Of a DNA stretch of 64,000 nt, positions 23,643 through 63,296 are shown piece by piece (within the stretch, counting starts at the first letter, position 1; each line of letters begins with the position of its first letter). The DNA lies in the NCBI GenBank assembly GCA_021463645.1, contig JAJTYI010000004.1, positions 174,277 through 238,276 of the forward strand. The letters run 5' to 3'. Made by a program: the position numbers and the translations under genes. Source of the stretch: a bacterium. GTDB taxonomy: Bacteria; Patescibacteriota; Dojkabacteria; B142; OLB20. The notes under the pieces were generated by a model that worked only from the letters and a program-made list of their open reading frames with translations, had not been told where the DNA came from and did not search any database.

Positions 23643-23643
23643 T

Positions 23644-42366: not shown

Positions 42367-42831
42367 TTAGTTACTAACTCCTGAGAAAAATATTTGTCCA
42401 ATCTTCTGGCCGATCATTAACTTAATTGGGAACTTGCTTGCATTATAAATCTCGCAGGTAATCACTGAGTCGGTCAATGGGTCGACAAGTACAGAAGAGA
42501 TATTAGTGAATAAACCGATTTGGGCAAGTGAAGGTTTTCCGTCAAAGATTGCCATTGTTTCTGAATTACAGTAAATCTTTTCTTCTGTTTTTCCAATTAT
42601 AAACTCACCAGGAGATAAAGTATAAGATTTATTTTTAACTTTAATAGGAGTTAACTCTTTTTCTTTTGGTTTTCCTCCGTTGAAGTATTTTCCTTTCGGT
42701 TTAACCTGGAATAATAAAGATCCCAAATGCATTTCGTATGAAACTGACCCGAGAAATTCTCCTTTAAATGGGGTTATTCCTATTATTTCGTCTTTGATAT
42801 ATTTGATTATTTTTTTATCTGAGAAGAACAT
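42367..42831 (-). CDS. dcd: dCTP deaminase/dUTPase superfamily protein
   Basis: 154 aa. SYEMHLG, LSPGEFIIGKTEE, GKPSLAQIGLF, VDPLTDSVITCEIYN and GQKIGQIFF follow the dCTP deaminase pattern, with some divergent positions. Confidence 0.75.
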   Translation of the reverse strand: MFFSDKKIIKYIKDEIIGITPFKGEFLGSVSYEMHLGSLLFQVKPKGKYFNGGKPKEKELTPIKVKNKSYTLSPGEFIIGKTEEKIYCNSETMAIFDGKPSLAQIGLFTNISSVLVDPLTDSVITCEIYNASKFPIKLMIGQKIGQIFFSGVSN

Positions 42832-43630: not shown

Positions 43631-46600
43631 ATGAAGCTCACTCTTAACAGGCTTAGATTTTTGGTATCACTAGGTTGGATATTCCTTATTGGAATTTTTT
43701 CTGTTGTAGGAACTGATCGTGTTGGGAGTGTACTTTCTGCTACCTCTCCATGGACACAAACAGAATGGTCTGGAGGACAAACAGATGACCTGGCGATTGG
43801 AACGGTTACCACATATAAGCAGATGGAGAATTTAGTAACTACATCGGGGAATTTGACACTGGCGTTAAAGTCTCCTTGGATGAATGAGGATTGGGGTTAC
43901 CGAAAAAAGCTTGTAATTGACAACACAACCGCAAATTTAGGCATTGCTTCTGAACAGCATCTGGATTTTCCAGTATTAGTAACTTTAAACACCGATAATT
44001 TCGATTATTCTAAAGCGAATGAAGATGGGAGCGACATAAGGTTTACTGATAGCGATGCATTAACCCTTCTTGATTATCAAATTGAGACTTGGGATATCTC
44101 TGGAGATTCTTTTATTTGGGTTAAGATTCCTCAAATTGATTTAGACTCAGATACTGACAATTTCTATTTATATTATGGAAATGCCTCAGCTATAGATGCG
44201 CAGAATCCTAGCGGAGTTTGGAGCAATTCATTTGAAGGTGTTTGGTTGTTAAATGACCCAAATGATACAACTTTGGTTTTAGATAGTGCTGGTAATCCGA
44301 CTTCAGAGAATGGTACAGCGCTTGCTGGAATAACTAATGCCTCGAAGATTAAATCCGGAATAGGTGGTGCGTTACAATTTGGATCTATAACCACAGATTA
44401 TATAACTCTGGGTATGCCAGCAAATCTTGATTTCACCCCAAATGCACAAGAATTTACAATTGATGCATGGGTCAAGTTTCCAGTCAATGCATCAGGGACT
44501 TTTTTTAGCAAAGGATCGAACACAGCGGCTAATATACAGTACGAGATGTATATTGGAACCAATAGACTTTATAGTCGAGTTGGAGGTGTAGCAAGAGATT
44601 CCACAAAGATAATTGGAGATGGAGAATGGCATCATATAGTTCTTCGTAATTACAATTCATCTGGATTGAAAATTTTTCAATATGTAGATGGATTGCAGGG
44701 AGGTACGCCTATTGCATCTGGGGCAGGAGTAATAACTGATAGAGATGTGATAATAGGAGGAAGAAGAAGTTCTACTAATGCAAACATTACATCAAGTTTA
44801 TCAGCAGGAGTAGAAATGGCAATGGTTAGGGCATCTAGTGTTGCACGTACTCCAGCATGGATTGCTGCCACCTTCAAATCTGAAAGTAACAGTTTTTTTG
44901 AATTTGAGTCAGAAGAAATGAAATACGAGACAAACGGATCTGTTTTATCAAATATCTTAGATGCAGAAGTGTTGCAAGATTGGGGAGTACTAAATTATAC
45001 AAACACTGGATCATCAAGCTTAGAAGTGAAGGTGAGAAGTGGAAATGAACCAGATTTATCTGACTCGGAACAGAGTTGGAGTGAGTGTTCTACAATTTCG
45101 TCTGGATCTACATTGGGAAGTGGAGGATGTGTTACAAATAAAACAAGATATATTCAATACAAAGTTGAATTCGTTGCAACTGATGCACAGACGCCTATTT
45201 TGGAAGATATTTCTTTAGCTTTTACACTAGCTGATATTGTTCGGCCTCCTACAAATGCAACTAACATTGAGATAGCTAATTTTTCTAGTGGAGATTGGAT
45301 TAATTCGTCTCCCACAATAACTTGGGATCCAGGAGTCGACAATGATGGAGGGAGCGGAATTTTAGGTTATTGTGTTTCGGTTGATGAGTCAGAACCAGAT
45401 TCAACTCATTCACTTGATCCAGAAGCAAATGCAGGAATTCTTCAGGGTTTGGATGATGGAGTTGTATCTTCAGCTTGCCCATATATTGTTGAAGGTGAGG
45501 AATTCAACTTGTCATCAATAAATGGATTAAATTTAACTTCTGGAAAGCAATATTATTTCTCGATAAAAGCTATCGATCAAAGTGATAACATTAACAATAC
45601 TGGTGCTTTCCAAGACTTACTATCATTCAAGTTCGACAATACACCACCAACACCACCCAGCTATGTTTCAATGCCTACAAACTTTCTATCATCAAAGAGT
45701 GTTACTGTGAGTTGGCCTTCAACTGGACCTGGTAGCGCAGAAGATGTTCATTCAGGGATTGCAGGTTTACAGTATAAAATCGGAACAGATGGAACATGGT
45801 ATGGGGATTTGCATACTGGCGTAGAAGACATAAACGACATACTAGTTAATGACGGATCATATACAACAAGCCCCGATTATGATTATTCTCAATTAATTGA
45901 AGGTACTAATTTCTTCTACATCAGAGCTGTTGACAATTTAGGAAATGTAACTTCAGATCAAGATGTAACGACTGGTTTAATCAAGATTAACACTTCTGCA
46001 CCATCAAAAGTTCTAAATCTATCAGTAAATAATTCAAATAATACTGAAAATAGTTATTCTTTTGATTGGGATCAGCCCGCCACCTTCACGGGTCAAGCTA
46101 GTGGTATTAGCTATTGTTACACAATTAATACTATCCCAGATGAGAACTCCTGTACTTTTACAGAACCAGGTGTTACAGAACTTCCTTCAGATGCGTATGC
46201 AACACAACCTGGGGTGAATACACTTTATGTTGTAGCAAAAGATGAAGCGGGAAATATTAACTATGCAACTTATAGTGAAACAGGCGCAAGTATAACTTTT
46301 ACATATTCAGGTAGTGCACCTGGTATACCTACAAATACTGACATATCTGATATTTCAATAAAGTCTACGGAGAATTGGAGACTTGTAATTTCTTGGAATA
46401 GCCCAACTAATATAGGTGCTGGTGTCTCCTATTACAATATTTATCGTAAGGTGGGTGAAGCGTCTTGTCTATCCAATTTTAGTTCTTTCAGTAAAGTAGG
46501 CTCAAGTAACAGTACTTCGTATATTGATCCCGATCTTCAACCAGTTCTTTACAGTTACTGTATAAAAGCATGTGATAGTGCCAATAATTGTTCTGCAAGT

Positions 46601-47872
46601 TCAGGAACTGCAAGTCGTGTTCCTACTGGTAAATTCACGGAAGCTGCATTATTATCTAGTGAAGTCGAGGTGTTGTCCGTAACAACTAGAAAAGCACTAA
46701 TTAGCTGGGTGACAGATAGGGTTAGTGATTCGAAAATTGAATATGGACTAGAGTCCGGAAAATATTTTGAAGAGGAAGTGAGTAATAGTGCCCAAGTGAT
46801 AAGCCACAATATTACTCTTAACAATTTGACACCAGGAACAACATATTTTTATAAAGTTAAATGGACTGATGTAGATGGGAATACTGGTGTAAGTGATGAA
46901 AAGTCTTTTGCCACTTTACCTCCTCCAGTAGTGTCAAATGTTTCGGCAAGTGCTATTACTACGAATTCAGCATTAATAAACTTCAGAGTGAGAAATGCAA
47001 CAAGAGTGTCCCTCGTATACGGGACAACAGAAACTTACGGAGGGAGTGAAGAAATTGCTACTTCGACTGAAGAATCTGAATATTCGATTCGATTGGGTAA
47101 TTTACAAGATGGAGTTACCTATAATTATAAATTCTTCCTGCAGGATATTGACGGAAATAATAATGACTCTGTTGTAAATTTCCAATTTGCGACTTTGCCA
47201 CTACCACAAATTAATAATCTAAGATTCGAAGAAGTGAAGAATACATCTCAACCAACAGTTAATGTATTTTGGGAAACCAATGTATTAACACTTGGATTTG
47301 TAGAATATGTAAATCAGGACAACCCAAGTGAGGATAGAACCCAAGCCGAAAGTGAATATTCCAATGAGCACGAATTAACCCTAACCGGATTAACTGCGAA
47401 TACAAATTACACTTTAATAGTTAGTGCCAGAGATTCTCTTGGGAATGTAGTTCAATCGGGGGAGTTTACATTCACTACTGCAAGTGACTCTAGGCCACCT
47501 GCAATATCAAATGTAAAAATTGAAACACGTCTTTCCGATGCCTCAGTAGAATTCGGTGCAGATGTATCGGCACAATTGATACTTACCTGGGACACAGATG
47601 AACTTGCTACAAGTCAAGTTCAGTTCGCACAAGGAACATCTGGAGACTATACTCAAAAAACTGCACTTGATGAAAATTTGACCTTTAATCACTTAGTGGT
47701 TATAAATAACTTAAGCCCGAGTAGCGTTTATAAATTACAAGTTTTGTCAAAAGATGATGTAGGTAATGAGGCAAGGGGTAAGAATATTGTCACGATTACT
47801 GCACAATCAAAAGAAAATCCTTTGGAAGTCATTTTTGGAAGGTTGTCGGAGGTATTTGGTTTCTTAAGATAG
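43631..47872 (+). CDS. Giant secreted/anchored surface protein: DUF2341-like, LamG/ConA-like lectin, multiple FN3/Ig-like repeats
   Basis: 1413 aa. N-terminal signal anchor, SPWTQTEWSGG, DUF2341 pattern (WGYRKK..DFPVLV..DGSDIRF..IWVKIP..YLYYGN), a LamG-like block, and FN3-like repeats (ISWVTDRVSDSKIEYG...). Paralogue of the next gene. Confidence 0.85.
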   Translation: MKLTLNRLRFLVSLGWIFLIGIFSVVGTDRVGSVLSATSPWTQTEWSGGQTDDLAIGTVTTYKQMENLVTTSGNLTLALKSPWMNEDWGYRKKLVIDNTTANLGIASEQHLDFPVLVTLNTDNFDYSKANEDGSDIRFTDSDALTLLDYQIETWDISGDSFIWVKIPQIDLDSDTDNFYLYYGNASAIDAQNPSGVWSNSFEGVWLLNDPNDTTLVLDSAGNPTSENGTALAGITNASKIKSGIGGALQFGSITTDYITLGMPANLDFTPNAQEFTIDAWVKFPVNASGTFFSKGSNTAANIQYEMYIGTNRLYSRVGGVARDSTKIIGDGEWHHIVLRNYNSSGLKIFQYVDGLQGGTPIASGAGVITDRDVIIGGRRSSTNANITSSLSAGVEMAMVRASSVARTPAWIAATFKSESNSFFEFESEEMKYETNGSVLSNILDAEVLQDWGVLNYTNTGSSSLEVKVRSGNEPDLSDSEQSWSECSTISSGSTLGSGGCVTNKTRYIQYKVEFVATDAQTPILEDISLAFTLADIVRPPTNATNIEIANFSSGDWINSSPTITWDPGVDNDGGSGILGYCVSVDESEPDSTHSLDPEANAGILQGLDDGVVSSACPYIVEGEEFNLSSINGLNLTSGKQYYFSIKAIDQSDNINNTGAFQDLLSFKFDNTPPTPPSYVSMPTNFLSSKSVTVSWPSTGPGSAEDVHSGIAGLQYKIGTDGTWYGDLHTGVEDINDILVNDGSYTTSPDYDYSQLIEGTNFFYIRAVDNLGNVTSDQDVTTGLIKINTSAPSKVLNLSVNNSNNTENSYSFDWDQPATFTGQASGISYCYTINTIPDENSCTFTEPGVTELPSDAYATQPGVNTLYVVAKDEAGNINYATYSETGASITFTYSGSAPGIPTNTDISDISIKSTENWRLVISWNSPTNIGAGVSYYNIYRKVGEASCLSNFSSFSKVGSSNSTSYIDPDLQPVLYSYCIKACDSANNCSASSGTASRVPTGKFTEAALLSSEVEVLSVTTRKALISWVTDRVSDSKIEYGLESGKYFEEEVSNSAQVISHNITLNNLTPGTTYFYKVKWTDVDGNTGVSDEKSFATLPPPVVSNVSASAITTNSALINFRVRNATRVSLVYGTTETYGGSEEIATSTEESEYSIRLGNLQDGVTYNYKFFLQDIDGNNNDSVVNFQFATLPLPQINNLRFEEVKNTSQPTVNVFWETNVLTLGFVEYVNQDNPSEDRTQAESEYSNEHELTLTGLTANTNYTLIVSARDSLGNVVQSGEFTFTTASDSRPPAISNVKIETRLSDASVEFGADVSAQLILTWDTDELATSQVQFAQGTSGDYTQKTALDENLTFNHLVVINNLSPSSVYKLQVLSKDDVGNEARGKNIVTITAQSKENPLEVIFGRLSEVFGFLR

Positions 47873-47876: not shown

Positions 47877-50800
47877 ATGCATGCAAAGAAAATTCTTGCG
47901 ATAAAAACTCTTAGTTTCTCAGTGTTATTCGTAGCTGTAATTTTTCTTGGAACACGAATCAAAGGTAATTTAAATGAGTTCGGTAATGTACTTTCAGCCA
48001 ACTCCCCTTGGATTCAGACAGATTGGAGTGGGGGTGTATATAACCAAATTGTAACGGGTAATGTAAATACTTATATATCCGAAACCGCTATTGATGCTGC
48101 TCTGAATGGTGAAATTAAATTACTTGAAAAAGAGGAGTGGGCTGTTGATTATAATGGATGGCAATATCGTAAGAAAATAAATTTTAATAACACTGATGCA
48201 TTTCTAAATGTCGAAAGTCAAGACTTGATTGATTTTCCGGTTCTTATTGTTCTTCAGCAAGGTGTAAATTTTGATTATACTAAATCTAAAGATAATGGTC
48301 AGGACATACGATTTGCTGATTCAAATGGAAATGTATTAAATTATGAAATAGAAAGATGGGAAGAAAATGGATCCTCCTATATTTGGGTAAAAGTCCCTCA
48401 GATTGATCAAAATTCAAATTCAAGTTATATATATGTCTACTACGGAAATTCTAGTGCATCAGATAGTCAAAACATTACTGGAGTTTGGAAGGATGATTAT
48501 AAAGGAGTATGGCATTTTAAGGAAGTTGTACATAATTCATGCACTGGTAATGTAAATGATACTTGTGATTCTACAATCAACTCAATTAACGGTTCATGGA
48601 CTGGCACTTTCCTTTCTGCAAATGGAAAAATTGGAAAAGCAGGTCAGTTTACTAATAATGCTACTAATTTCCTGGATTTCGGAGATAATGCAGTCTTTGA
48701 TTTTGGGAATAGCGACTTTACTATAGAGACTTGGTCGAATAGAAATATTGTCAATAGTGATTGGAATTCATCTGTGATTACAAAATGGAATACTGGAGCA
48801 TCACCATCAACAAATGAATGGTCAATTTCTTGGGGTTCTGGAGGTTCAAGATCTACTGTCCCTGGTTTTACGATGGTATCTGGATCTACTAATTATAATG
48901 CTAATTCAACCGAAAGTTTACTTACACAAACATGGAATCATATCGTAGCAGTCAGAGAAAACACGAATATACTTTTATATGTTAACGGAGTATTGCATGC
49001 AACAACTCCTGTTGGGTCTGTTTCTGTAAATAATGTACCCGGAAGAACACTTAAAGTTGCTAAAATTGATGCAGGGAGTTATGGATTTGATGGTTTGATA
49101 GATGAAATAAAGATTTCTAGAACTGCAAAGTCCCGATCGTGGATAGCGGCAACTTATAAGTCGGAAAATAATCAATTTGCCTCCTTTTCTCAAGAAGATC
49201 TCAAATATAATGATAGTGGTTATCTAGTTTCAAACATTCTTGATTCAGGTGTGTCAATGGACTGGGGATTACTAAACTACACAAGTTCAGGAACAGGTAC
49301 GGTAACAGTTAAGGTACGAACAGACAACTCGTCTGATATGAGTGGAGCAACAGGCTGGGGAACGTGTGGTGCAGTTACAAGCGGAACTGACACTTCTGCA
49401 AACAACTGTGTAGACGATGGAGATAGATATATCCAATATCAAGTAACTCTTCAACCAAGTGGAGCATCAACTCCAGTATTTGAAGATATTAGCATAGCTT
49501 TTGTTCCATCAGATCAACTAGCACCAGAAGTAAACGCAACAGATGTTGAAATCTCAGGACTTGCAAACAGCGGAGATTGGTATGCAACAGAACCAACAAT
49601 CACATGGACAGCAGGAGCAGATGACTTAGGGGGTAATGGGATTTTAGGATATTGTATAGCAATAGATGAAGCAGAACCAAATGCCAGTAACGGACTAAAT
49701 CCAGCGATGACCTCAGGAATACTAACAGGTAAGAATGACGGAGTAGCACAAGAGTATTGCCCCTACATAGTAGTGGGAGAAGAATTAGAGGTAAGTGCAG
49801 TAATAGGACTGGATTTGATTGCAGGTAAACAATACTACATATCAATAAAAGCAGTAGATATCGCAGGAAATATCTACACAGGAACAGATGAAACATGGAA
49901 AGATCTACTATCATTCAAGTATGACAACGAAGAACCAACAGCACCATTCTACATATCATTACCCGCAAACTTTCTATCATCAAAAGACGTAGTAGTAACA
50001 TGGCCGGTAGGAGTAGGAGGAGCAGATGACTTACACTCAGGACTAGCAGGACTACAGTACAGGATAGGAGACACAGGAACATGGTATGGAGACCTACATA
50101 CAGGAACAGAAGATATCAATGACCTACTAATAAACGACGGTTCGTATGTAACAGACGAGACATACGATTACCCAGAACTAGTAGAAGGAAACAACCTAAT
50201 CTACTTCAGGGCAGTAGATAATCTAGGGAATGTAACAGCACCAGAGAACTATGTAAAAGGAATATTGAAGCTAAATACAGTGGCACCATCTCCAGTAAGA
50301 AATCTCTCCGTAAACCCAATAAACGGAACAGAAAACAATTACACATTTACATGGGATGTCCCAGGAACATATACAGGATCAAGTTCAGGGATAAGATACT
50401 GTTACACAGTAAACGCAATACCGTCAGTATCAAATTGCATATACACAGATCCGGGAGTAACAACCATAGGACCAGATGCATATGCAACACAACCAGGAGA
50501 GAATACAATGTACGTAGTAGCAAAAGATGAAGCAGGAAACATCAACTATGCAACATACTCGGAACCAGGATCAAGTGTAACGTATACATACTCAGGAACA
50601 GCACCAGGAATGGCACAGAACTTGGATGTAGCAGATATCTCGGTAAAAGCAACACTGAATTGGAGACTGGTACTATCGTGGGATCAACCAACAAACATAG
50701 GAGCAGGGATATCCTACTACAATATTTATCGTAGTGAGACAGCAACTTCATGTGTATCTTCACAGAGTGCATTCACAAAAGTAGGGTCAAGTACAAGTAC

Positions 50801-52151
50801 ATCATACATAGATCCAAACCTACAACAAAAAACATACAATTATTGTATAAAGGCATGTGATAGTGCAAACAACTGTTCAGCGAGTTCAGGGACGGTAGGG
50901 AGATTACCAACAGGGAAGTTCACGGAACCAGCAGAGTTGCTATCTCCACCGGAGGTAGTGAGTTTTACAACAAGGAAGGCAGTGATTAATTGGATAACAG
51001 ACAGAGTATCAGACTCTAGTATTCAGTATGGTCTTGAAAGTGGTGTCTACTTCGAAGCAGAAGTAGCAAACAGTAATCAACTAGCTGTACATACAATTCC
51101 TCTCAATAATCTCGAACCAGGAACTACATACTATTACAGAGCAAAATGGACTGATGTAGATGGAAACACAGGTGTAAGTGAGGAAAAAACTTTCTCTACT
51201 CTTCCGGCCCCAACAATCTCAAACACAATAACAACTAACGTCACTACAAATTCGGCGGTTGTCACATTTTTAGTAAGAAATTCAGTAGAAGCAACTATTT
51301 TATACGGATTATCCGATAATTATGGTGGCTCACAAACGATACCAACCTCTACAATAGAGTCGACTTATTCATTGCAACTTACAAATCTTCAAGAAGGTAC
51401 ATTGTACAACTACAAACTGAATCTATTGGATGTCGATGGGAATAACTATACTTATTTTGAGAATCATCAATTTACAACATTACCATATCCGCGAGTACAA
51501 GATATCCAAGTACAAGAAGTAAAAAACAGCGCTCAACCAACAGTCGATGTAAATTGGATATCAAATGTACCAATAAGTACCCAAGTTAATTACTATCCTC
51601 TAGATGACACTAATCAGAAAAGGGATAAGCTCGATGTAGAATTAAAAACAGAACACAAAATATCGATTTCAGAATTACAACCAAACAGAAGATACGGTAT
51701 GATAATAACTGGAAGAGATGCAATAGGAAATCAAGCTGTATCTGATGAATATCAATTCACAACAGCAGCAGACTCAAGACCACCAGAAATAAGAAACATA
51801 AAGGTAGAGACAAGAGTAAGTAATACAAATACAGGAGAACAAGCACAAACACAGTTGATAGTGACATGGGATACGGATGAAGAAGCAACAAGTCAGATAG
51901 AATATGGAGAAGGTTCAGGAGGGACATATACACAGAGGAGTTTGGTAGATGACAATCTAACGTTCAATCATTTAGTAATAGTAAACAATCTACGACCAAG
52001 TAGTGTGTATCACTTCAGAGTGGTATCGGCAGATAGTGCAGGGAATGAATCAAGTGGAAAGAATGTAGTAACGATAACAGCACAAGTAAGTGAAAACCCA
52101 TTGGACATAATTATCTCTAGATTAACTGAAGTGTTTGGTTTTATCCGCTAG
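47877..52151 (+). CDS. Giant surface protein, paralogue of 43631-47872 (DUF2341-like, LamG-like, FN3 repeats)
   Basis: 1424 aa with the same architecture and the same C-terminal tail (ENPLDIIISRLTEVFGFIR). Starts 4 nt after the previous stop. Confidence 0.85.
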   Translation: MHAKKILAIKTLSFSVLFVAVIFLGTRIKGNLNEFGNVLSANSPWIQTDWSGGVYNQIVTGNVNTYISETAIDAALNGEIKLLEKEEWAVDYNGWQYRKKINFNNTDAFLNVESQDLIDFPVLIVLQQGVNFDYTKSKDNGQDIRFADSNGNVLNYEIERWEENGSSYIWVKVPQIDQNSNSSYIYVYYGNSSASDSQNITGVWKDDYKGVWHFKEVVHNSCTGNVNDTCDSTINSINGSWTGTFLSANGKIGKAGQFTNNATNFLDFGDNAVFDFGNSDFTIETWSNRNIVNSDWNSSVITKWNTGASPSTNEWSISWGSGGSRSTVPGFTMVSGSTNYNANSTESLLTQTWNHIVAVRENTNILLYVNGVLHATTPVGSVSVNNVPGRTLKVAKIDAGSYGFDGLIDEIKISRTAKSRSWIAATYKSENNQFASFSQEDLKYNDSGYLVSNILDSGVSMDWGLLNYTSSGTGTVTVKVRTDNSSDMSGATGWGTCGAVTSGTDTSANNCVDDGDRYIQYQVTLQPSGASTPVFEDISIAFVPSDQLAPEVNATDVEISGLANSGDWYATEPTITWTAGADDLGGNGILGYCIAIDEAEPNASNGLNPAMTSGILTGKNDGVAQEYCPYIVVGEELEVSAVIGLDLIAGKQYYISIKAVDIAGNIYTGTDETWKDLLSFKYDNEEPTAPFYISLPANFLSSKDVVVTWPVGVGGADDLHSGLAGLQYRIGDTGTWYGDLHTGTEDINDLLINDGSYVTDETYDYPELVEGNNLIYFRAVDNLGNVTAPENYVKGILKLNTVAPSPVRNLSVNPINGTENNYTFTWDVPGTYTGSSSGIRYCYTVNAIPSVSNCIYTDPGVTTIGPDAYATQPGENTMYVVAKDEAGNINYATYSEPGSSVTYTYSGTAPGMAQNLDVADISVKATLNWRLVLSWDQPTNIGAGISYYNIYRSETATSCVSSQSAFTKVGSSTSTSYIDPNLQQKTYNYCIKACDSANNCSASSGTVGRLPTGKFTEPAELLSPPEVVSFTTRKAVINWITDRVSDSSIQYGLESGVYFEAEVANSNQLAVHTIPLNNLEPGTTYYYRAKWTDVDGNTGVSEEKTFSTLPAPTISNTITTNVTTNSAVVTFLVRNSVEATILYGLSDNYGGSQTIPTSTIESTYSLQLTNLQEGTLYNYKLNLLDVDGNNYTYFENHQFTTLPYPRVQDIQVQEVKNSAQPTVDVNWISNVPISTQVNYYPLDDTNQKRDKLDVELKTEHKISISELQPNRRYGMIITGRDAIGNQAVSDEYQFTTAADSRPPEIRNIKVETRVSNTNTGEQAQTQLIVTWDTDEEATSQIEYGEGSGGTYTQRSLVDDNLTFNHLVIVNNLRPSSVYHFRVVSADSAGNESSGKNVVTITAQVSENPLDIIISRLTEVFGFIR

Positions 52152-52197
52152 GGTGTTAAAACTTGCCAATGTAAAACAAAACAATTAATATAAAGTA

Positions 52198-54585
52198 TTG
52201 AAAAATCTTATGGAATCGAAACCAATTATACAACTCAAGAATGTAACTAAAGATTTTCAGGTCAAAATTCAGGAAATTAAAGTTTTAAGAGGTATTACTT
52301 TAGATATAATGCCAGGGGAGTTTGTTGTCATATTGGGTCCATCTGGGTCAGGTAAATCAACCATCTTAAATCTAATTCTTGGGTTAGAACCTCCTACAAG
52401 TGGGGAAGTAATATTCAAAGGTATTCCAATACATAATCAAACACCTGATTTTATTGCGGAAATTAGAAAAAATGAAGTCGGAATGGTACATCAGCAAGCA
52501 AATTGGATTAGATCACTTTCTGTAATTGAAAATGTTGGTTTCCCATTGGCACTTAGGAACATTCCTAAACACAAATTAATGAACAAAGCTAGAGAGAAGC
52601 TCGATATTTTCGGTATGGGTGGTTGGGCAAATTTCATGCCTAGCGAACTTTCTTCTGGACAGCAACAAAAAGTGGGTTTGGCAAGAGCACTAGTGACAGA
52701 TCCAGATATCATAGTTGCAGATGAGCCTACAGGAAACTTGGACTTTAAAAGTGGAAGAAGATTAGTAGAGTTGTTATCCGGTCTGACGAAAGATGGGAAA
52801 ACCGTAATTATGGTTACCCATGACTTGGAGTATATTGAGTTTGCAGACAGAATCATCAGAATTCTAGATGGAAAAGTCTTTGAAGAGATTAATAACAAAC
52901 ATGGGAAACACAATATAGATGAACTTAAGCAAAAAATAGTTACTCAAAATGTTGAAGCAGAAAAGTTTTACGAATCCGCAGAGGACAGTGCTCCTAGCGT
53001 ATATAGGGCAAAATCAAAGATGCAGAAATTCAAACAAAGTATCAAAGCGTTCAATATGAAATCTGCAATAAAAAAAGAATTGCAGTCTTATAAAATAATC
53101 ATAGAATTATTTTTCGTTGTTATTACACTTTTATTAGTAATCATATCAATAGGGTATAGATTTATTGATAAGTTCCTTGGTTTTAAATATTGGCCTAATT
53201 TTATGAGGACAATTCAGTATAGATTTTCGGATATTTACTATAAATTCTTAGACAAAATAGTTCAGTATCGAGGTGAAAGCGTGAATTTCGCAGATATGAT
53301 TGATCTTTCAGTAAAGAATCTTATGTCTAAAAAAACTAGAACTTACGTAACTGTTGGTGGTGTTGCAATGGGAATTGCTTTTACAGTATTCCTAGTTTCT
53401 ATAGGCTTTGGATTAGAACGGCTGGTTCTACAGAATTTTTCAAAGTTAGATCAACTTCGTTCAATTGATGCATATTCTTCAGTTAGTCAAAATGTCCAAA
53501 TTAACGATAAAACTGTCTCGGATTTGAAGAATGTAACCGGAGTTGAACAAGTACTTCCAATTATCGCGATTGCTGGTAAAGTTAATCTTCAAGGATCTGA
53601 GACAGATATTGTAGCTTATGGGGTTGAAAGAGAGTACTTGAGGAGATCAGACCTAAACTTACTACATGGGGAATTTTTTCCAGATTTACAAATTGCACAA
53701 AACACAGACAATGTAAAAGGTGAAGAAGATGCTGTATCTGATGAAACACTAGAAGAAGATGGTAATCAAGTTAAAAAAGTTCGTATTCCTCAAAATTCAC
53801 AACAACAAACAGTTGTAAATACAGCTTTTTTGGATTTATTCGGTTTAGAGTATGAATCTGCTATTGGTAGCGAGTTTGATGTTTCGTTGATCGCTACTCA
53901 AGAATTAGCGGAAGGAGAAGAAGTGGATTTGGAAAGTTACCCTACAACTTATAAAATCACATCTGTTGTTTCTAATTTTTCTATTCCAGTGATTTACGTT
54001 CCGCTAAAAGATGTACAAGCCCTAGGGGTACAAACATATTCACAAGCCAGAATTATTACTGCATCCCAAGACAACGTACCAGAAGTAAGACAAAAAATAG
54101 ATGTCATGGGATATAGAACGGAATCAATTTTAGACACTATCACACAAATAGAGTCCACTTTCAGAAATATTAGGTTGGTATTAACTAGTGTTGGTATGGT
54201 TGCCCTAGCTGTTGCATCATTTGGTATGTTTAATACATTGACTGTGTCTCTACTTGAAAGGATTCGAGAGGTGGGTCTTCTAAAAGTGATGGGGATGAAG
54301 AGTGTTGAGATCAAGGATTTGTTCCTCACGGAGTCAATCTTGTTAGGACTCGGAGGTGGAGTTCTTGGAATTGTAATCGGATTGGTTAGCGGAACAGTTG
54401 TTTCTACAATTATTTCATCTATTGCTATTTCTCGTGGTTACGAATCTATTCAGGTTGCGAGTATACCATTCGCATCTCTGATGGCAATTCTTCTTGTAGC
54501 TACAGTAACTGGAATGCTCACAGGTCTATATCCATCTAGACGTGCCACAAACATTTCTGCACTTAACGCATTAAGATACGAATAA
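52198..54585 (+). CDS. Fused ABC transporter: ATP-binding domain plus FtsX/MacB-type permease
   Basis: 795 aa. Walker A GPSGSGKST, signature LSSGQQQKV, Walker B IIVADEPTGNLD and H-loop VTHD. Then the FtsX/MacB-type permease domain, with a large loop between TM helices and the C-terminal LYPSRRA motif. TTG at 52198 or ATG at 52210. Confidence 0.88.
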   Translation: MKNLMESKPIIQLKNVTKDFQVKIQEIKVLRGITLDIMPGEFVVILGPSGSGKSTILNLILGLEPPTSGEVIFKGIPIHNQTPDFIAEIRKNEVGMVHQQANWIRSLSVIENVGFPLALRNIPKHKLMNKAREKLDIFGMGGWANFMPSELSSGQQQKVGLARALVTDPDIIVADEPTGNLDFKSGRRLVELLSGLTKDGKTVIMVTHDLEYIEFADRIIRILDGKVFEEINNKHGKHNIDELKQKIVTQNVEAEKFYESAEDSAPSVYRAKSKMQKFKQSIKAFNMKSAIKKELQSYKIIIELFFVVITLLLVIISIGYRFIDKFLGFKYWPNFMRTIQYRFSDIYYKFLDKIVQYRGESVNFADMIDLSVKNLMSKKTRTYVTVGGVAMGIAFTVFLVSIGFGLERLVLQNFSKLDQLRSIDAYSSVSQNVQINDKTVSDLKNVTGVEQVLPIIAIAGKVNLQGSETDIVAYGVEREYLRRSDLNLLHGEFFPDLQIAQNTDNVKGEEDAVSDETLEEDGNQVKKVRIPQNSQQQTVVNTAFLDLFGLEYESAIGSEFDVSLIATQELAEGEEVDLESYPTTYKITSVVSNFSIPVIYVPLKDVQALGVQTYSQARIITASQDNVPEVRQKIDVMGYRTESILDTITQIESTFRNIRLVLTSVGMVALAVASFGMFNTLTVSLLERIREVGLLKVMGMKSVEIKDLFLTESILLGLGGGVLGIVIGLVSGTVVSTIISSIAISRGYESIQVASIPFASLMAILLVATVTGMLTGLYPSRRATNISALNALRYE

Positions 54586-54590
54586 AATTT

Positions 54591-55655
54591 ATGGGTGATT
54601 TCGATATTAGCCAAATAAATAATGCTAGTGAACAAGAATCGCCAAAAAACAAGCGTAACTTTTCCTCAATTGTTAAAAAAGGTCTAATTATTTTCTCACT
54701 AATTTTTGTTGTTATCTCTGCAATTTTTATCTATTCATATAAGTATAGAAATAGGTCAGATGATATAACCATAGGATATTCATCTGAGGAAGATATAGCC
54801 CTAGTGAGTATAGCTGAGAATTTAAAATATTTTGCAGATAAAGAAGTGGAGATTGATTATCGAAACTATGATGACGAATTAGAATTAATTCAAGCGCTTT
54901 CAGAGTCAAAGGTTGACGTGGTCTTTGTGGAGGACCTATCTATAGTAATGGCAAATCCCGCAGAAAATAAAAATAAAATCATAACTTCGGTTTTAAATGC
55001 AGAAAAATATTTTTTTGTTGTCGACGTAAAGAAAGGTGTTTTTGATGTTTCGAGTTTGAGTGGCCAAGAATTAGGTGTACCAGATTCATATAAAACAGAT
55101 TATTGGCTCGCAAAAGGATTGATTAATGCAGGAATAGATAAAAGGGACGTGATTATTGAAACCTACAAGCCTGAGAAACTGGCAGAAGAGTTGGCTAATG
55201 CAGAGGTAACCGGAATTTTTGCATGGCAGCCATATGTATATGAATCTGAGACATTTGAAGGTTCTGAAGTTCAACAAATTGTTTTACCAATTCAAAGAGA
55301 AGAGCAATCTTATAATTATCTATTAACTTCGGAAAGTTATCTTGAAAATAATGCAGAGGATTTGAAAAAATTGGTTTTATCTTTAATATCCGCTGAACAA
55401 TACATCGTAGAAAATAACGACATCTCTGTAGAATATCTAGCGGGTGAGTGGTCTAGTGAAAAAAGATATGTAACAGAAATTTTGAATTCATACAATTACG
55501 AAGTAAATATTTCTCGAGAATCCAAACTATCGTTATCTGAAAAATACGAATGGTCAAAGACAAAATCCCGCAGTCAAGACGAGGAATTTCAAATCGAAAG
55601 TATCTACTACTACAATCTTTTGAGAGAAATCGACCCGAAAAGAGCTGAGTTTTGA
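54591..55655 (+). CDS. Membrane-anchored periplasmic-binding-protein-like protein (NMT1/SsuA-like)
   Basis: 354 aa. N-terminal TM, then ITIGYSSEEDIALVSIAENLKYFADKEVEIDYRNY..ALSESKVDVVF and ELGVPDSY..TGIFAWQPY, the pattern of type 2 SBPs of the NMT1/TauA/SsuA class. Confidence 0.6.
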   Translation: MGDFDISQINNASEQESPKNKRNFSSIVKKGLIIFSLIFVVISAIFIYSYKYRNRSDDITIGYSSEEDIALVSIAENLKYFADKEVEIDYRNYDDELELIQALSESKVDVVFVEDLSIVMANPAENKNKIITSVLNAEKYFFVVDVKKGVFDVSSLSGQELGVPDSYKTDYWLAKGLINAGIDKRDVIIETYKPEKLAEELANAEVTGIFAWQPYVYESETFEGSEVQQIVLPIQREEQSYNYLLTSESYLENNAEDLKKLVLSLISAEQYIVENNDISVEYLAGEWSSEKRYVTEILNSYNYEVNISRESKLSLSEKYEWSKTKSRSQDEEFQIESIYYYNLLREIDPKRAEF

Positions 55656-55661
55656 TAGAAT
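55653..55661 (+). promoter_or_regulatory. Candidate extended -10 promoter (TGATAGAAT) for pgl-gnd-zwf
   Basis: Overlaps the stop codon of the upstream gene, 28 nt before the pgl ATG. Confidence 0.35.
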
Positions 55662-55688
55662 GTTTAGTTAATTAATATCGTCGAAAAA

Positions 55689-56414
55689 ATGTTTCAGATT
55701 AAAACATCAACCAAACCTGCTTTTAATTCTGCAAAGAGAAATATAGAACTACTTAGTTCCCAATTGTCACATAAAAATAATGTAACATGGCTTTTGGCAG
55801 GAGGTTCTGCAATAAATATCTACAGAGAAATGCTTGATTTAATAAAATTAGACTTGGATTTCTCCAGATTAAGTATTTCTTTGGGAGATGAAAGATATTC
55901 TAAAAATCCCGCTCACAAGGATGCAACTTGGCCAATATTTGAAAAGTTGGAACTATTTGTCGAATTAAAGAAACTTGGAGCGAATATATTTCAAATATTG
56001 TCTGGAAAATCTATAGAAAAAGATGCAGACAGATTTAATAACTTCCTTAAAGATCGACTCAGAGATAGTGATTTTATATTATGTAATCTTGGAGTTGGTA
56101 CCGATTCACACACAGCAGGAATTCTTCCGATGAATGACATGAAACTTTTTGAAGAAACTTACCCTGAGAATCGACTGGCAGTAGGACACAAACATGGTGG
56201 AGTACATCCCAAAAGAATTACTGTTACTCCCGGTTTTCTCAAGAAAGCAAACAAAATTACCGTTTTTATGATAGGTTCTGATAAAAAGCCCGTTCTAAAA
56301 GAGCTTCATAAATATAAAGAACTCGAAAAAACACAGAATATGATTTACAAACATCCAGCCCTTGTTACATCTCTAATGTCCGCCGAGGTATTCACGGATC
56401 AAAAGTTATCTTAG
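55689..56414 (+). CDS. pgl: 6-phosphogluconolactonase
   Basis: 241 aa. LLAGGSAINIY, SLGDERY and GVGTDSHTAGILP (NagB/6PGL family), in context with gnd and zwf. Confidence 0.85.
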   Translation: MFQIKTSTKPAFNSAKRNIELLSSQLSHKNNVTWLLAGGSAINIYREMLDLIKLDLDFSRLSISLGDERYSKNPAHKDATWPIFEKLELFVELKKLGANIFQILSGKSIEKDADRFNNFLKDRLRDSDFILCNLGVGTDSHTAGILPMNDMKLFEETYPENRLAVGHKHGGVHPKRITVTPGFLKKANKITVFMIGSDKKPVLKELHKYKELEKTQNMIYKHPALVTSLMSAEVFTDQKLS

Positions 56415-56434
56415 TTTTTAGCCTTTTATACGTC

Positions 56435-57355
56435 ATGAAAAAAGAAATTGGATTTATTGGTTTAGGTAGTATGGGTTTAAATATGGTTTACAAACTATTA
56501 GATGAAGACTATATAGTTCATGCTTGGAACAGAAGCGAGGGGGCAAGACTAGAAGCCGAGAAAGCTGGTGCAAAAGTTTACGAATCCATTGGAGAAATGG
56601 CAAAAGCATTAAAAGAAGATGAAAGACTCTTCTGGAGTATGGTAAGTGCAGGTCCAGCAGTTGATGAGGTGCTAACTGAATTGAAAAAATATGTTAGGAA
56701 AGGAGATTTAGTTGTTGAAGGTGCTAATTCATTTTACGAGGATAGCGTAAAACGTCATGATGAATTTGCTAGTCTTGGTGTTTATTATTTTGATGCCGGG
56801 GTTAGTGGCGGTTTGGGAGGTGCGAGGAATGGTGCCTGTATTATGATTGGTGGTGACAAGAAAATTTTCGATGAGCATCTTGAGCAAATAGTTAAGGATT
56901 TAGCGATTGAAGATGGTTATGGCTACTTCGGAGAAACGGGAGCTGGGCATTATGTCAAAATGGTACATAATGCTATTGAATATGCAATGATGCAGGCTAT
57001 GGGCGAAGGAATGAATCTAATTTCAAAATCGCAATACAAAGATGTTGATTTCGAGAAATTAACAGATGTCTGGAATCACGGGAGTATTATAGAAGGACGT
57101 TTGATGGGCTTTTTGAAAGATGCATTATCAAAGGATAATAATCTTGAGAAAACAGAAAGTGAAGTAGGTTCACTAGGAACTGGTGAATGGTCTGTCAGAG
57201 AAGCTTTGAAGAACGAAGTCCCATTTTCTGCAATCGCAGGAAGTGTTTTCGCGAGGTATAATTCTAGAGGAAATGACGACTTCTCTGCAAAAGTTGTCCA
57301 GGCATTACGAGTTGAGTTTGGAGGTCACAATTCACAAGAACGACCACAGAAATAA
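56435..57355 (+). CDS. gnd: 6-phosphogluconate dehydrogenase, short (~300 aa) decarboxylating form
   Basis: 306 aa. IGFIGLGSMGLNM, DAGVSGG and GAGHYVKMVHNAIEYAMMQAMGEG. Confidence 0.9.
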   Translation: MKKEIGFIGLGSMGLNMVYKLLDEDYIVHAWNRSEGARLEAEKAGAKVYESIGEMAKALKEDERLFWSMVSAGPAVDEVLTELKKYVRKGDLVVEGANSFYEDSVKRHDEFASLGVYYFDAGVSGGLGGARNGACIMIGGDKKIFDEHLEQIVKDLAIEDGYGYFGETGAGHYVKMVHNAIEYAMMQAMGEGMNLISKSQYKDVDFEKLTDVWNHGSIIEGRLMGFLKDALSKDNNLEKTESEVGSLGTGEWSVREALKNEVPFSAIAGSVFARYNSRGNDDFSAKVVQALRVEFGGHNSQERPQK

Positions 57356-57376
57356 ATATTTTTAACTAAAAACATA

Positions 57377-58777
57377 ATGATTTTAACAATTTTTGGTGCT
57401 ACAGGAGATCTTGCAAGAAGGATGTTATTTCCGTCACTCTATCATCTTCATAAACAAGGCCGACTTCCTAATGACCTGGAAATAGTCGGATTTGCTAGGC
57501 GTGAACTATCCAATGAACAATTTTGTGAGTATCTATCAGATGAATTCAAAAACTTATATGGAAATGTTTTCAATTTAGAAAGTTGGCAAAAATTTTGTGA
57601 AAAAATCACCTATTTTCAAGGCGACTTAGCGAGTGAAGCTGACTTCCAAAGACTTGGGAAAAAATTAGCAGAAGCGGATACAGATCTTCAGTCATGTACC
57701 GATAAGATCTTCTATTTAGCAATCAGTCCGGATTTATATCCGCAAACATTTTCAGGAATCAGAAAATCACAACTTGAAAGCATCTGTGAACACACAAAAC
57801 ACGTTCGAGTTGTAGTTGAAAAACCATTTGGAAAAAACTTAAAATCTTATTATGAATTGAATAATAACTTAATAGATATTTTCGATGAGGAACAGATCTA
57901 TCGTATTGATCATTATTTAGGAAAAGAAACCGTAAAGAACATTTTGAATTTTAGAGCTGCAAATCCATTATTTTTTAACGACTGGAACAAAAACACGATA
58001 GATCGAATAGATGTGAAAGTGATGGAATCCCTAGGAGTTGGAACTCGAGCAGAATATTATGACGAGTATGGACAAATGAGGGATTTGGTTCAAAGTCATG
58101 GCTTGCAGTTATTATCTCTTGTGATGTCAGAATTACCTGACGAACTCACAGCAGACAAAATACGTAACTCGAAAACTGAGATCCTGCAGAGTTTGTATGT
58201 GGAGAGTATGGAAAACGATGTTGTTCGGGGACAGTATGGCAGTGGAATTATAGATGGCTACCCAGTTAAATCTTACAAGGAAGAGCATGAGAAGTTGGTA
58301 GAGTCAAATACCGAGACTTATGTACATATAAAAGCACATTCAAGGCTTGAAACCTGGGAGGGTGTTGAGATTAATTTGATTAGTGGCAAAAGAATGCAAA
58401 GTAAAGAGACTTCTATTACATTACATTTTAAGAGCCAAGAGCGAGTAAAAGGCATCCCTTCGAAAAATAAACTAATATTCCAACTTCAACCAAGTGAGGG
58501 TATTACACTTGACTTACAGGTGAAAAAACCGGGTTTAAATGAGCTCGAGGTTGTCCCAATGGTTTTCAAATATCAAGACAATTTTAGAGTACTACTTCCA
58601 GATGCTTATGAATCTCTGCTTTTAGATATATTTAAAGGCAATAAATCGAGTTTTATTAGTAATGAAGAATTAGAAGCATCATGGAAATTTATTGATCCAA
58701 TATTAGAGCTATGGAATACTGAAAATTCTCGACCGGTGATTTATCCTGCGGGAAGTAAGTATTTGCAGATTAATTAA
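57377..58777 (+). CDS. zwf: Glucose-6-phosphate 1-dehydrogenase
   Basis: 466 aa. IFGATGDLARR, EKPFG and RIDHYLGKE motifs. Confidence 0.95.
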   Translation: MILTIFGATGDLARRMLFPSLYHLHKQGRLPNDLEIVGFARRELSNEQFCEYLSDEFKNLYGNVFNLESWQKFCEKITYFQGDLASEADFQRLGKKLAEADTDLQSCTDKIFYLAISPDLYPQTFSGIRKSQLESICEHTKHVRVVVEKPFGKNLKSYYELNNNLIDIFDEEQIYRIDHYLGKETVKNILNFRAANPLFFNDWNKNTIDRIDVKVMESLGVGTRAEYYDEYGQMRDLVQSHGLQLLSLVMSELPDELTADKIRNSKTEILQSLYVESMENDVVRGQYGSGIIDGYPVKSYKEEHEKLVESNTETYVHIKAHSRLETWEGVEINLISGKRMQSKETSITLHFKSQERVKGIPSKNKLIFQLQPSEGITLDLQVKKPGLNELEVVPMVFKYQDNFRVLLPDAYESLLLDIFKGNKSSFISNEELEASWKFIDPILELWNTENSRPVIYPAGSKYLQIN

Positions 58778-59180
58778 ATTGGAATTCTTTAAAATAGGAT
58801 TCCAACATATTCTCGAGATCAGGGAAATCTTTGTACCACATAAACTGAAATCTATCATAGTCAATCCCTCGTAGCATTCTAGATACAATTTGACCTTCTA
58901 ACGCTATCGCAAGTACTGGTTTCCCGACGTGTACTGCATGCATAACTTCCATACCTACTCCATGAGAAGGATAACTAACTTCCGCAATAACTATATCTGC
59001 TGATTCGACTGCTTTGATATCCATATTGTAAAGAGTTCGCATATCATCGACTGGGCCTGTACCGAACCACGGAATGATTTCTGCATATTTCGGTAGAACC
59101 TCTTTATTAATTTTAATTAAGTGGGGATTCTCACTCTCCATAATTAAATTTACGGCGTAATAGACTTTAGGTTTCTTCAT
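58770..59180 (-). CDS. NDT-fold protein, DNPH1/Rcl/MilB-like putative (deoxy)nucleotide N-glycosidase
   Basis: 136 aa. ADIVIAEVSYPSHGVGMEVMHAVHVGKPVLAI matches the DNPH1-type catalytic-Glu block. Last gene of the ThyA-like operon. Confidence 0.72.
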   Translation of the reverse strand: MKKPKVYYAVNLIMESENPHLIKINKEVLPKYAEIIPWFGTGPVDDMRTLYNMDIKAVESADIVIAEVSYPSHGVGMEVMHAVHVGKPVLAIALEGQIVSRMLRGIDYDRFQFMWYKDFPDLENMLESYFKEFQFN

Positions 59181-59697
59181 TTTTAATTAATTGATAAAAA
59201 AATTCAAAATCCCCATTTTTACATGTGGGGAGTGCTCGATTGAAGTATTTCTCTGAATCTTCAAGCAGATAGATATTATTGATTCCTGCTTTTAACATTT
59301 TTTCTGAACATGGTTTGCAACACCACCACTCTCCAAATAAATAGGCATCTGCTCCTTTGATATCTATTCCCTTTTCTGTGGCGAGATTAATTGCTTTTGG
59401 TTCTGCATGGTTTTCATAATCACAACCTGGACACAAATGATAGTCTTGCCCAGATGGAGTGCCTAATTTCACTCTTTCACAGCCATTTTTTATATGATAG
59501 TCTGATCCATCTGCAGCTTTTACTAGTACTTTTCCATTTCTGACAAAAACAACTCCTACTGGTGACTTAGGTTCATAGCCAGTGTCATATGCATCTGTCT
59601 TAGCGATATCCATCGCAACTTGCATAAACTTGTTAGTAATTGGAACATACTGATATGGTTTGCCTGGTATTTCGTAGGGATAATTGATTTTTTTCAT
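59167..59697 (-). CDS. CDA-fold zinc deaminase (dCMP deaminase/ComEB-like)
   Basis: 176 aa. NHAEPKAI (HAE) and WWCCKPCSEKM (PCxxC), plus an extra Cys/His cluster (CERV..HLCPGC) suggesting a second zinc site. Confidence 0.8.
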   Translation of the reverse strand: MKKINYPYEIPGKPYQYVPITNKFMQVAMDIAKTDAYDTGYEPKSPVGVVFVRNGKVLVKAADGSDYHIKNGCERVKLGTPSGQDYHLCPGCDYENHAEPKAINLATEKGIDIKGADAYLFGEWWCCKPCSEKMLKAGINNIYLLEDSEKYFNRALPTCKNGDFEFFYQLIKNEET

Positions 59698-62548: not shown

Positions 62549-62580
62549 TTAAAATTGAAAAATTCCAATTATATGATTTC

Positions 62581-62735
62581 GGGTTGATTCAAAAGAGAAA
62601 TTTGGGTAGACTGATTAGTTTTTTAGGGTCAGTTAGTTCTGCTAGTAGGAGAACTCTTTCCAATTGAAATGTTTTACAATGAAGTTTTAGATCCTCAAGA
62701 GTCCTTTGACTCGCCGCATACATTCCTAGGTTTGG
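62581..62735 (+). repeat. Copy A of a 155-bp direct repeat (promoter-like block, leader, and first ~30 codons of a small ORF)
   Basis: The first 51 nt are identical to 63297-63347 and the remainder is about 80-85% identical by eye. Contains TTGATT-17 nt-TAGACT (62584-62612). The in-frame ORF stops after ...FLGLAT. Confidence 0.85.
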
Positions 62736-62821
62736 CAACCTAGTTAAGAATCAATAGTATAAATGCCTGTGAGATTTCAGTTCTTAGTGTATAATTGTGC
62801 TAATTTTTAAAGGCCAAATTA

Positions 62822-63115
62822 ATGAGCGATTTAGAAAATGGAGAAAATTCCATGTGTCCGAGTGCAGAGAGTGGTATACATCAGCCATGGGAACGAGTAA
62901 CTGTAGACAAGGATTTTGAGTTGAGGGTCCTTGAGGACAAGAGAACTGCAAGACATGTGAGGTGGATAACAAAGGAAATTATTTGTGAACATTGTGGTCT
63001 ACTACTAAGTACCGGTCATTATACAGAGGTTACTACCTTCAGATTGAAAAATTATGGTATAAGGAAGCAAATAAAGTACGAATTGTCTGCTGGTAACTTT
63101 GATTTATCGCAATAA
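62822..63115 (+). CDS. Hypothetical protein (97 aa) located between the two 155-bp repeats
   Basis: ORF only. Contains a CEHC pair; no recognisable family. Confidence 0.4.
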   Translation: MSDLENGENSMCPSAESGIHQPWERVTVDKDFELRVLEDKRTARHVRWITKEIICEHCGLLLSTGHYTEVTTFRLKNYGIRKQIKYELSAGNFDLSQ

Positions 63116-63296
63116 TTCTATATTTAAAATTTTTGACTAAAATAAGCGAAGTTAATAACGTAGCACCCTTCAAATAAATATTTATTGCAAGGCACCATCA
63201 GACATAGATATCTTAGGCTTTTCACTCATGTGTACTTTTTATATTTAACTATTCTTTTAAATATATTTTTCTATTAATACAGATAACATTGTTTTA

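Follow-up and report, generated by a model that had tools for sequence, protein, structure and literature searches.

The window, that is the whole 64,000-nucleotide stretch analysed here, is chromosomal DNA of a Candidatus Dojkabacteria bacterium from the candidate phyla radiation (CPR), and it harbors two giant paralogous genes in tandem, gene 1 and gene 2 (Table 1). The subject of this report is gene 2, in which two tracts, A and B, are written in a codon dialect almost purged of T. Each of the two genes encodes a signal/transmembrane (TM) segment, a DUF2341 domain, a LamG-like domain and about eight Ig/FN3-like modules; the Pfam domains of gene 2 are DUF2341, Laminin_G_3, fn3 and Pur_ac_phosph_N. 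The two proteins share about 50% amino acid (aa) identity overall (15-80% by window of comparison), four-fold degenerate sites between the genes are saturated, and the pair is old. Both paralogues end in the conserved peptide SENPL[DE][IV]I..RL[ST]EVFGF[IL]R (47800-47872 and 52080-52151), which is a candidate export or sorting signal. Below, homologous loci are denoted by L and a number, W stands for the window, and W1 and W2 for its genes 1 and 2. The closest genome record is the metagenome-assembled genome (MAG) DAOMOX010000002.1 (locus L001), which is syntenic with the window and about 92% identical to it in nucleotides (nt) over 49223-58149, and 83% in gene 1. The N-terminal cassette of gene 2 stands apart from this similarity: it shares only 25-55% aa identity with that of L001, although the shared flanking DNA is about 92% identical, and the nucleotide homology of all relatives to gene 2 restarts sharply at 49223-49242, just upstream of tract A. 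The N-terminal third of gene 1 (43850-45200) is likewise hypervariable, with nucleotide identity to L001 falling to 66-75%.

The tracts were called with a class-aware two-state hidden Markov model (HMM) on codon composition, and the log-likelihood ratios (LLR) in Table 1 can be set against the best segments elsewhere: gene 1 has none above 7.7, and the ABC gene downstream none above 4.4. State 0 of the model covers 47877-49505 and 51015-51752, so the dialect spans only parts of gene 2. When all long open reading frames (ORFs) of the window were scanned in sliding windows of 100 codons, the 11 windows (of 281) with the strongest excess of A over T at third positions (A3-T3) all fell within the two tracts; the skew there rises up to +0.70, about 5 SD above the background, which is -0.01 +/- 0.14 and peaks at 0.31. 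Four-fold sites of tract A are A 0.82 / T 0.06 / G 0.09 / C 0.04, compared to A 0.39 / T 0.37 / G 0.11 / C 0.12 in the other genes of the window. The tract B region reaches A 0.75 / T 0.12 over 51627-51926, and the intervening block, which is 97-99% identical to L001 in nucleotides, shows A 0.52 / T 0.27 over 50952-51626. GC skew within the tract is about 0 to 0.18, and the codon usage of gene 1 is ordinary and T-leaning over its full length. The initial annotation had described T-poor, A-ending-codon tracts in gene 2 and ordinary, T-leaning codons in the rest of the gene and in its paralogue, and both descriptions are borne out. In terms of protein architecture, tract A spans about five Ig/FN3-like modules ending in xDxxGN motifs (aa 582, 660, 780, 883 and 994), and tract B, which begins just past such a motif at aa 1280 and contains another at aa 1385, corresponds to the last FN3-like module.

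Table 1. Positions in the window of the two giant genes and of the features of gene 2
Feature	Coordinates	Strand	Description
Gene 1	43631-47872	+	ORF, 1413 aa; tandem paralogue of gene 2, internal control
Gene 2	47877-52151	+	ORF, 1424 aa; predicted surface protein carrying tracts A and B
N-terminal cassette of gene 2	47877-49222	+	Hypervariable; signal/TM, DUF2341, LamG; ordinary T-ending codons
Tract A	49506-51014	+	HMM LLR +133; ~503 codons, W2 aa 544-1046; NNA, T-purged dialect
Antisense ORF	49600-49914	-	104 aa, longest antisense ORF; by-product of the skew
Antisense ORF	50542-50772	-	Noted earlier; by-product of the skew
Intervening ordinary block of gene 2	51015-51752	+	HMM state 0, LLR -46
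Tract B	51753-52109	+	HMM LLR +29; ~119 codons, aa 1293-1411; same dialect as tract A

The dialect comes close to one codon per amino acid: GGA, GCA, GTA, ACA, CCA, TCA, CTA and ATA. In tract A, isoleucine is encoded by 19 ATA, 4 ATT and 8 ATC codons, and 55% of leucine codons are CTA, in place of TTA. At two-fold pyrimidine sites the C fraction is 0.45 versus 0.18-0.32 elsewhere, and at two-fold purine sites A/(A+G) is 0.72, the same as elsewhere. A stretch of 72 nt that is homologous between the paralogues illustrates the difference: gene 1 reads HSGIAGLQYKIGTDGTWYGDLHTG from 45749, with 19 T, and gene 2 reads HSGLAGLQYRIGDTGTWYGDLHTG from 50034, with 10 T, six GGA and three CTA codons. This example had been given before, and it was right to within two bases once placed in frame. 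The conserved peptide GTWYGDLHTG lies in this region, and its A-recoded nucleotide form is GGAACATGGTAYGGAGAYCTACAYACAGGA. The two antisense ORFs noted earlier also exist, and they are created by the skew: the antisense strand of tract A is depleted of A, so that its stop codons drop to 16 and 10 in two of the three frames (46/16/10 per frame, compared to 40/26/37 in the homologous region of gene 1). An overlapping antisense gene was considered and rejected, as the longest of these ORFs has 104 aa, none spans the tract and one frame holds 46 stops.

All degeneracy classes follow a single order of preference, purine over pyrimidine and C over T. Four-fold pyrimidines became A and four-fold G was left in place, classes restricted to pyrimidines went from T to C, and TTA went to CTA. 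Only synonymous routes of a single step were taken, and the ratio of TCN to AGY serine codons, which no synonymous single step connects, is the same in the tract as elsewhere. The pressure towards T loss leaked slightly into the protein as well: among the conservative replacements that separate normal-codon alleles from W2, those losing T toward W2 prevail by 12:2 and 11:1 (such as Ser>Thr, Phe>Tyr, Leu>Ile/Met and Val>Ala/Glu/Asp). The purine content of the sense strand is 0.60-0.61 in A-rich alleles versus 0.51-0.53 in normal ones, the predicted RNA folding of the tract is about 25% weaker (-17 versus -21 to -23 kcal per 120 nt) with GC content being higher, and runs of five or more A are absent from the tract. 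The signal therefore looks like one at the level of nucleotides or RNA and not like tRNA matching, because the serine ratio is unchanged, the routes are single-step, the replacements lose T and the gene for ribosomal protein L19 is ordinary. No other ribosomal-protein gene is available in the window; this one, rplS (6161-6676), has A 0.45 / T 0.37 at four-fold sites. One could argue that the tracts use the codons best suited to a gene with very high expression, since A-ending four-fold codons together with C-ending two-fold codons resemble matching to U34 and G34 tRNAs. However, the L19 gene does not share the dialect, ATA and not ATC leads among isoleucine codons, and CTA replaces TTA though both end in A. 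Moreover, only parts of gene 2 are affected, amino acid changes lose T as well, and the state is decaying, as shown below. Translational selection is thus a very improbable explanation.

The mild asymmetries of the window itself are of another magnitude. Genes on the minus strand use A- and C-ending codons slightly more often (A3-T3 of about +0.03 to +0.30, compared to -0.14 to +0.12 on the plus strand), which is a weak, window-wide asymmetry linked to replication or transcription, of the same sign as that of the tracts but far smaller. Replication-strand or single-stranded DNA damage asymmetry was rejected as the source of the tracts, since the strand effects in the window are small and G is not depleted. 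The spectra of deamination, oxidation and abasic-site bypass predict loss of G from the sense strand, which is not seen in the tract, and skews of the mitochondrial type are likewise depleted of G.

The comparison set comprised about 90 homologous loci with DNA. Extreme A-richness in the region of tract A was found only in close relatives of gene 2, namely the window, L001/L088, L004, L084 and L005; in L084 and L005 it is strong at aa 451-750 and weak beyond, and L086 is moderate. Genome records that carry the A-rich allele include DAOMOX01, OEIV01 and CXWK01. The C fraction at two-fold sites and the use of CTA are graded in the order L005 < L084 < W/L001/L004. Tract B is also A-rich in L001, L084, L085 and gene 2 of the distant L002, and it is not in L086; conversely, L085 and L002 are A-rich in tract B and not in tract A. 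The two tracts are thus distributed differently, and therefore they do not represent one simple import. In every genome with an A-rich segment, the remaining genes sampled on the same contig are of ordinary composition, and no other gene of the window shows the dialect. A survey of 12,857 windows (about 295,000 codons) of related CPR DNA yielded A-rich tracts extending over multiple windows in the gene-2 clade only. In homologues at or below 57% identity the composition follows the own genome in every case, and in 61 distant homologues T3 lies above A3 in this region relative to their own genomes. A family-wide intrinsic pressure towards A at these positions was rejected, as these 61 homologues lean to T. 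Counter to the family trend, at the four-fold sites of a few distant homologues (L007, L028, L049 and L057) A moderately exceeds T when compared with their own genomes; in L007 (Ga0180432_10000040, 4453-8829) four-fold A is 0.57 against a background of 0.38, strongest toward the C-terminus.

Protein neighbour-joining (NJ) trees were built for four segments, and W2 was placed inside the gene-2 clade in all four. The A-rich alleles form one derived monophyletic group with L086 as its sister, nested among the normal-codon alleles L085, L002 gene 2 and L089 gene 2. At the protein level there is no drop of identity at the tract edges: orthology is kept, with 74-88% identity between the proteins along most of the tract, and the identity between W2 and L002 in tract A (58-90% aa) is at least that of the flanks and at least that of gene 1 at the same positions. 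The protein carries no footprint of import from a distant homologue. The initial annotation had placed the highest identity between the two paralogues in the tracts. This was right in part: the peak at about 49.9-51.2 kb overlaps the second half of tract A, but it also covers the ordinary block that follows, and tract B is not especially conserved. Recoding that would reduce identity with the tandem paralogue was rejected as well, since W2 and W1 share 0.40 of four-fold sites, where about 0.32 is expected by chance.

The evidence for a mosaic comes from sliding identity, the compositional HMM and the NJ trees of individual segments. The clearest case is L085, whose genome is nearly identical to that of the window (99% aa at the C-terminus of gene 1). 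Despite this closeness it carries an ordinary-codon allele across tract A and a different N-terminus. Its aa identity to W2 is 48-88% at aa 451-1000, across tract A, switches to 96% at aa 1001-1050, falls to 46-54% at aa 1101-1200 and returns to 92-100% at aa 1201-1400. The opposite case is L086, a genome as distant as that of L002 (ABC protein 73%, 6PGD 64%, GlcN isomerase 44% aa identity), with housekeeping proteins 33-73% identical to those of the window and saturated four-fold sites: its tract A is A-rich at 82% aa identity, and the rest of its background is ordinary. The window and L001 likewise match unevenly along their whole length, with 81-100% identity per 300 nt. Different segments of gene 2 have different nearest relatives, in agreement with the segment trees, and the distribution of A-rich alleles is incongruent with the relatedness of the genomes. 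Homologous recombination among alleles therefore shuffles the segments of gene 2, which supports the previous proposal of recombination tracts. The proposed modular exchange is in line with the hypervariable N-terminal cassette that ends at about 49223, beside tract A. Tract B matches one FN3-like module, whereas the 3' edge of tract A sits within a module; therefore the exchange is only partly aligned with modules.

Such a mosaic could in principle be produced during assembly, by joining reads from another organism, and gene 2 is indeed difficult in this respect. In several independent MAGs it is broken within the same stretch of about 350 nt (around 50.25-50.6 kb in the window), by N-runs in L085 (2749-2769) and L086 (505-579) and a 1-nt insertion in L002 (at about 6899), and gene 2 of L084 has a chimeric join; the stretch is systematically hard to assemble, the likely cause being conserved sequence shared with the paralogue and co-occurring alleles. 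However, at least five independent assemblies (L001, L004, L088, L084 and L005) have these tracts at 79-97% nucleotide identity, identically ordered and with junctions that are collinear. The reading frame is also unbroken, and orthology of the protein holds over its full length. A chimera or contamination is therefore hardly credible as the source of the tracts. In L084 itself (Ga0100460_13385, 108-1604 / 1580-4266) the C-terminal 498 aa are inverted directly against the N-terminal part of the gene-2 copy, with a non-homologous join after W2 aa ~896; the assembly is chimeric here or else the inversion is genuine. Programmed frameshifting or phase variation at the common split was rejected, as the breaks are N-runs, a chimeric join and a single-base insertion, and runs of five or more A are absent from the tract.

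Reconstruction of the past composition shows that the dialect is being lost. The ancestor of the A-rich group is estimated to have had A at about 90% of the conserved four-fold sites (93 + 28 of 135), with four being unambiguously T. On the tips leading to W and L001, polarised by L004, four-fold changes run 26 away from A and 2 toward it (p = 3e-6), and over more branches 32 away and 5 toward; at two-fold sites there were 13 C>T and 8 T>C changes. The dialect decays toward the resident composition, and it is without effective maintenance in this genome, because the changes run 26:2 away from A and L085 has a normal allele. This bears directly on the idea that ongoing local selection keeps the mRNA of the Ig-like modules purine-rich, U-poor and unstructured, a variant of which might be resistance to U- or pyrimidine-directed RNases or freedom from Rho-loading sites. 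On this view the mosaic would do no more than mirror the places where selection works. Such selection would account for the common order purine > pyrimidine and C > U in all classes, for folding that is predicted to be about a quarter weaker despite higher GC, for the persistence of A-richness across lineages with saturated neutral sites, and for the synonymous divergence between W and L001, which in the tract is about half of that in gene 1 at equal protein divergence. Nevertheless, recent changes go the other way, L085 has a normal-codon allele across tract A in an almost identical background, gene 1 shows nothing of the kind with the same architecture, and the 61 distant homologues lean in the opposite direction. 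Additionally, the L19 gene is without bias, so weak selection on single sites is unlikely to reach 80-90%. Thus we consider ongoing selection on RNA an unlikely explanation.

A mutational origin was weighed as well, namely a strand-specific mechanism that acted on the segment and was followed by purifying selection on the protein. Candidates would be adenine mutagenesis of the kind made by diversity-generating retroelements (DGRs), acting on the antisense template, or error-prone synthesis under the A-rule, tied to recombination at the cassette boundary. The T loss that reaches conservative non-synonymous changes, the use of single-step synonymous routes only, the start of tract A near the hypervariable cassette edge at ~49223 and the abundance of DGRs in CPR genomes speak for it. 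On the other side, a Pfam scan of 48 window ORFs, six of which had no match at all, revealed no RVT or mobile-element family. A repeat pair resembling the template and variable repeats (TR/VR) of a DGR was not found either, the repeats of gene 2 being only 70-80% paralogue matches at a spacing of 4285-4288 nt. The typical variable region of a DGR is far shorter than the 1.5-kb tract. Furthermore, four-fold G and the two-fold A/G balance are untouched, which does not fit the spectra of deamination, oxidation or abasic sites, the skew shows no gradient from the cassette boundary, and the process is inactive now. Therefore a retroelement is not indicated, as both the reverse transcriptase and the TR/VR pair were missing from this material, and a strand-specific mutational mechanism in general seems improbable.

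The question of where the dialect came from was approached by searching for a donor. Among the homologous loci, obtained by a genome-contig scan and a metagenome scan that gave 80 loci, no donor with a matching genome-wide codon regime was found; one protein-motif scan of IMG/VR and tblastn searches of INPHARED phages and PLSDB plasmids did not return a donor either, and the sole viral homologue found is not skewed. Neither an identifiable donor nor a placement outside the host clade emerged. The initial annotation had proposed an import from a homologue under another codon regime. One half of this stands, as the composition of the tracts is foreign to the resident genome and is ameliorating at 26:2; the other half is not supported, as no donor was found and the tracts nest in the clade of gene-2 orthologues. 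Import is thus plausible rather than demonstrated, and it has to be narrowed: the A-rich allele must be a derived member of the same orthologue lineage.

In our opinion the tracts are probably pieces of a distinct, T-purged allele lineage of gene 2, spread by recombination and now decaying. In this lineage pyrimidines, and T above all, would have been removed from the sense strand as far as the protein permitted. The A-rich state arose once, in the gene-2 orthologue lineage of one Dojkabacteria subgroup, and had reached about 90% A at four-fold sites in the common ancestor. Recombination between related genomes has since cut and pasted A-rich and ordinary segments, leaving here the alternation of A-rich, ordinary and A-rich blocks of Table 1 downstream of the hypervariable N-terminal cassette, and in this genome the dialect is relaxing to normal composition. 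We infer that the allele lineage passed a period under a different regime. This may have been life in another replicon or organism, as yet unsampled, whose coding strands are strongly purine-loaded, or else selection that once acted on the nucleotides or RNA of the block.

Several points weigh against this account. An external origin is unproven, as the donor searches of genome, metagenome, viral, phage and plasmid collections came back empty. A-richness persists between lineages with saturated neutral sites (four-fold differences of 0.62-0.67 between W and L005 in gene 1, and saturated housekeeping four-fold sites between W and L086); therefore either the allele spread by recombination more recently than the divergence of the genomes, or it was maintained for a part of its history. 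The graded series L005 < L084 < W/L001/L004 could be read as progressive accumulation in situ. Parsimony polarisation is somewhat biased when composition is skewed, and some of what looks like decay may stem from exchange with ordinary alleles by recombination and not from point mutation. Pairwise four-fold identities are predicted by the maintenance and decay models alike to equal the product of the compositions.

An alternative that shares the transfer among strains is that the dialect was made de novo at this locus by a directional process that removed pyrimidines, T/U in particular, from the sense strand of the block of Ig-like modules and brought four-fold sites to about 90% A, and only then became a transferable module. 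The process could be selection on mRNA or a strand-specific mutator tied to cassette recombination. We regard this as possible, though rather doubtful. If true, it would be a natural, near-complete synonymous recoding of a part of a gene.

Parts of this picture have precedents. Mosaic surface or target genes that arise by recombination between related strains or species are known, for example in Neisseria and Streptococcus. Gene 2 resembles them in the block-wise switches of the nearest relative, the incongruent alleles and a hypervariable cassette beside conserved modules. It is unlike them in that its blocks differ mainly at synonymous sites, in a strand-asymmetric dialect, and in that a donor species is not identifiable. 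The model of Lawrence and Ochman describes the amelioration of compositionally atypical acquired DNA, and the tracts follow it in being atypical for the genome and in substitutions that run back to the resident composition. Contrastingly, the segment here is intragenic and nested in the resident orthologue clade, and its estimated starting point of about 90% A at four-fold sites matches no sampled genome. Purine loading of mRNA-synonymous strands is known from Szybalski's rule and the work of Forsdyke, with the purine-rich Gly-Ala repeat of EBNA1 from Epstein-Barr virus (EBV) as an extreme local case. The sense strand of gene 2 is similarly enriched in purines, with synonymous pyrimidines removed and the predicted RNA structure weaker, yet the enrichment is local (about 1.9 kb of one bacterial gene), does not lie in a low-complexity repeat and is not currently maintained.

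Two further systems invite comparison. Borrelia vlsE is a strand-skewed antigenic-variation locus with a G-rich coding strand, and both it and gene 2 are surface-protein loci with recombination-driven variation and a strongly skewed coding strand; in gene 2 the skew is A over T and not G over C, and there are no silent cassettes or G-runs. With the targets of DGRs gene 2 has in common a CPR protein of the surface type and a base-specific (adenine/thymine) asymmetry, but this asymmetry extends across the synonymous sites of 1.5 kb and adds to the A of the sense strand instead of diversifying it. Literature searches brought up nothing comparable. Intragenic recombination mosaics in surface proteins are familiar. 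The unusual trait of gene 2 is the mark that its exchanged blocks bear, a purine-loaded dialect of nearly one codon per amino acid that matches no sampled genome; the estimated ancestral state of about 90% A at four-fold sites and the lack of a sampled source are uncommon as well.

The genomic neighbourhood of the giant genes is of the housekeeping type and includes GatB, RecJ, a V/A-type ATPase operon, glyA, folD, thyA and rplS. Directly downstream of the two paralogues lies a MacB-type fused ABC ATPase/permease (52198-54585), which is also present in all syntenic relatives. The V/A-type ATPase operon is accompanied in the window by a thymidylate-cycle set (glyA, folD, dCTP-deaminase-like, cytidine/dCMP-deaminase-like and thyA) and by a PIF1-like helicase gene; the coordinates of these genes are, taken together, 20587-28626, 28654-30018, 34584-35459, 42367-42831, 59167-59697, 60209-61033 and 61262-62548. 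Families of intergenic direct repeats adjoin tRNA genes at 4557-5139, 10946-11701 and 62574-63451. The copies at 4751-4845, 4962-5056 and 5045-5139 overlap with the end of tRNA-Lys. Next to a C5 DNA methylase gene (11742-13010), tRNA-Asn is flanked by repeats of 81 nt and 175 nt and by GC-rich units of 36 nt, and a further pair lies at 62574-62735 and 63290-63451. These repeats may derive from former integration sites or be small mobile repeats.

The giant surface proteins of CPR bacteria are presumed to be attachment or host-interaction factors. If the dialect of gene 2 was imported, there would have to be a relative or mobile element, so far unsampled, whose coding strands are extraordinarily skewed; a local origin would mean that an RNA-level constraint or a strand-specific mutational process has gone unrecognised in these organisms. 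The dialect is specific to one orthologue lineage and is a natural tag for tracking the history of the allele, and it reads out directly how often and where recombination cuts the giant surface-protein genes of CPR bacteria.

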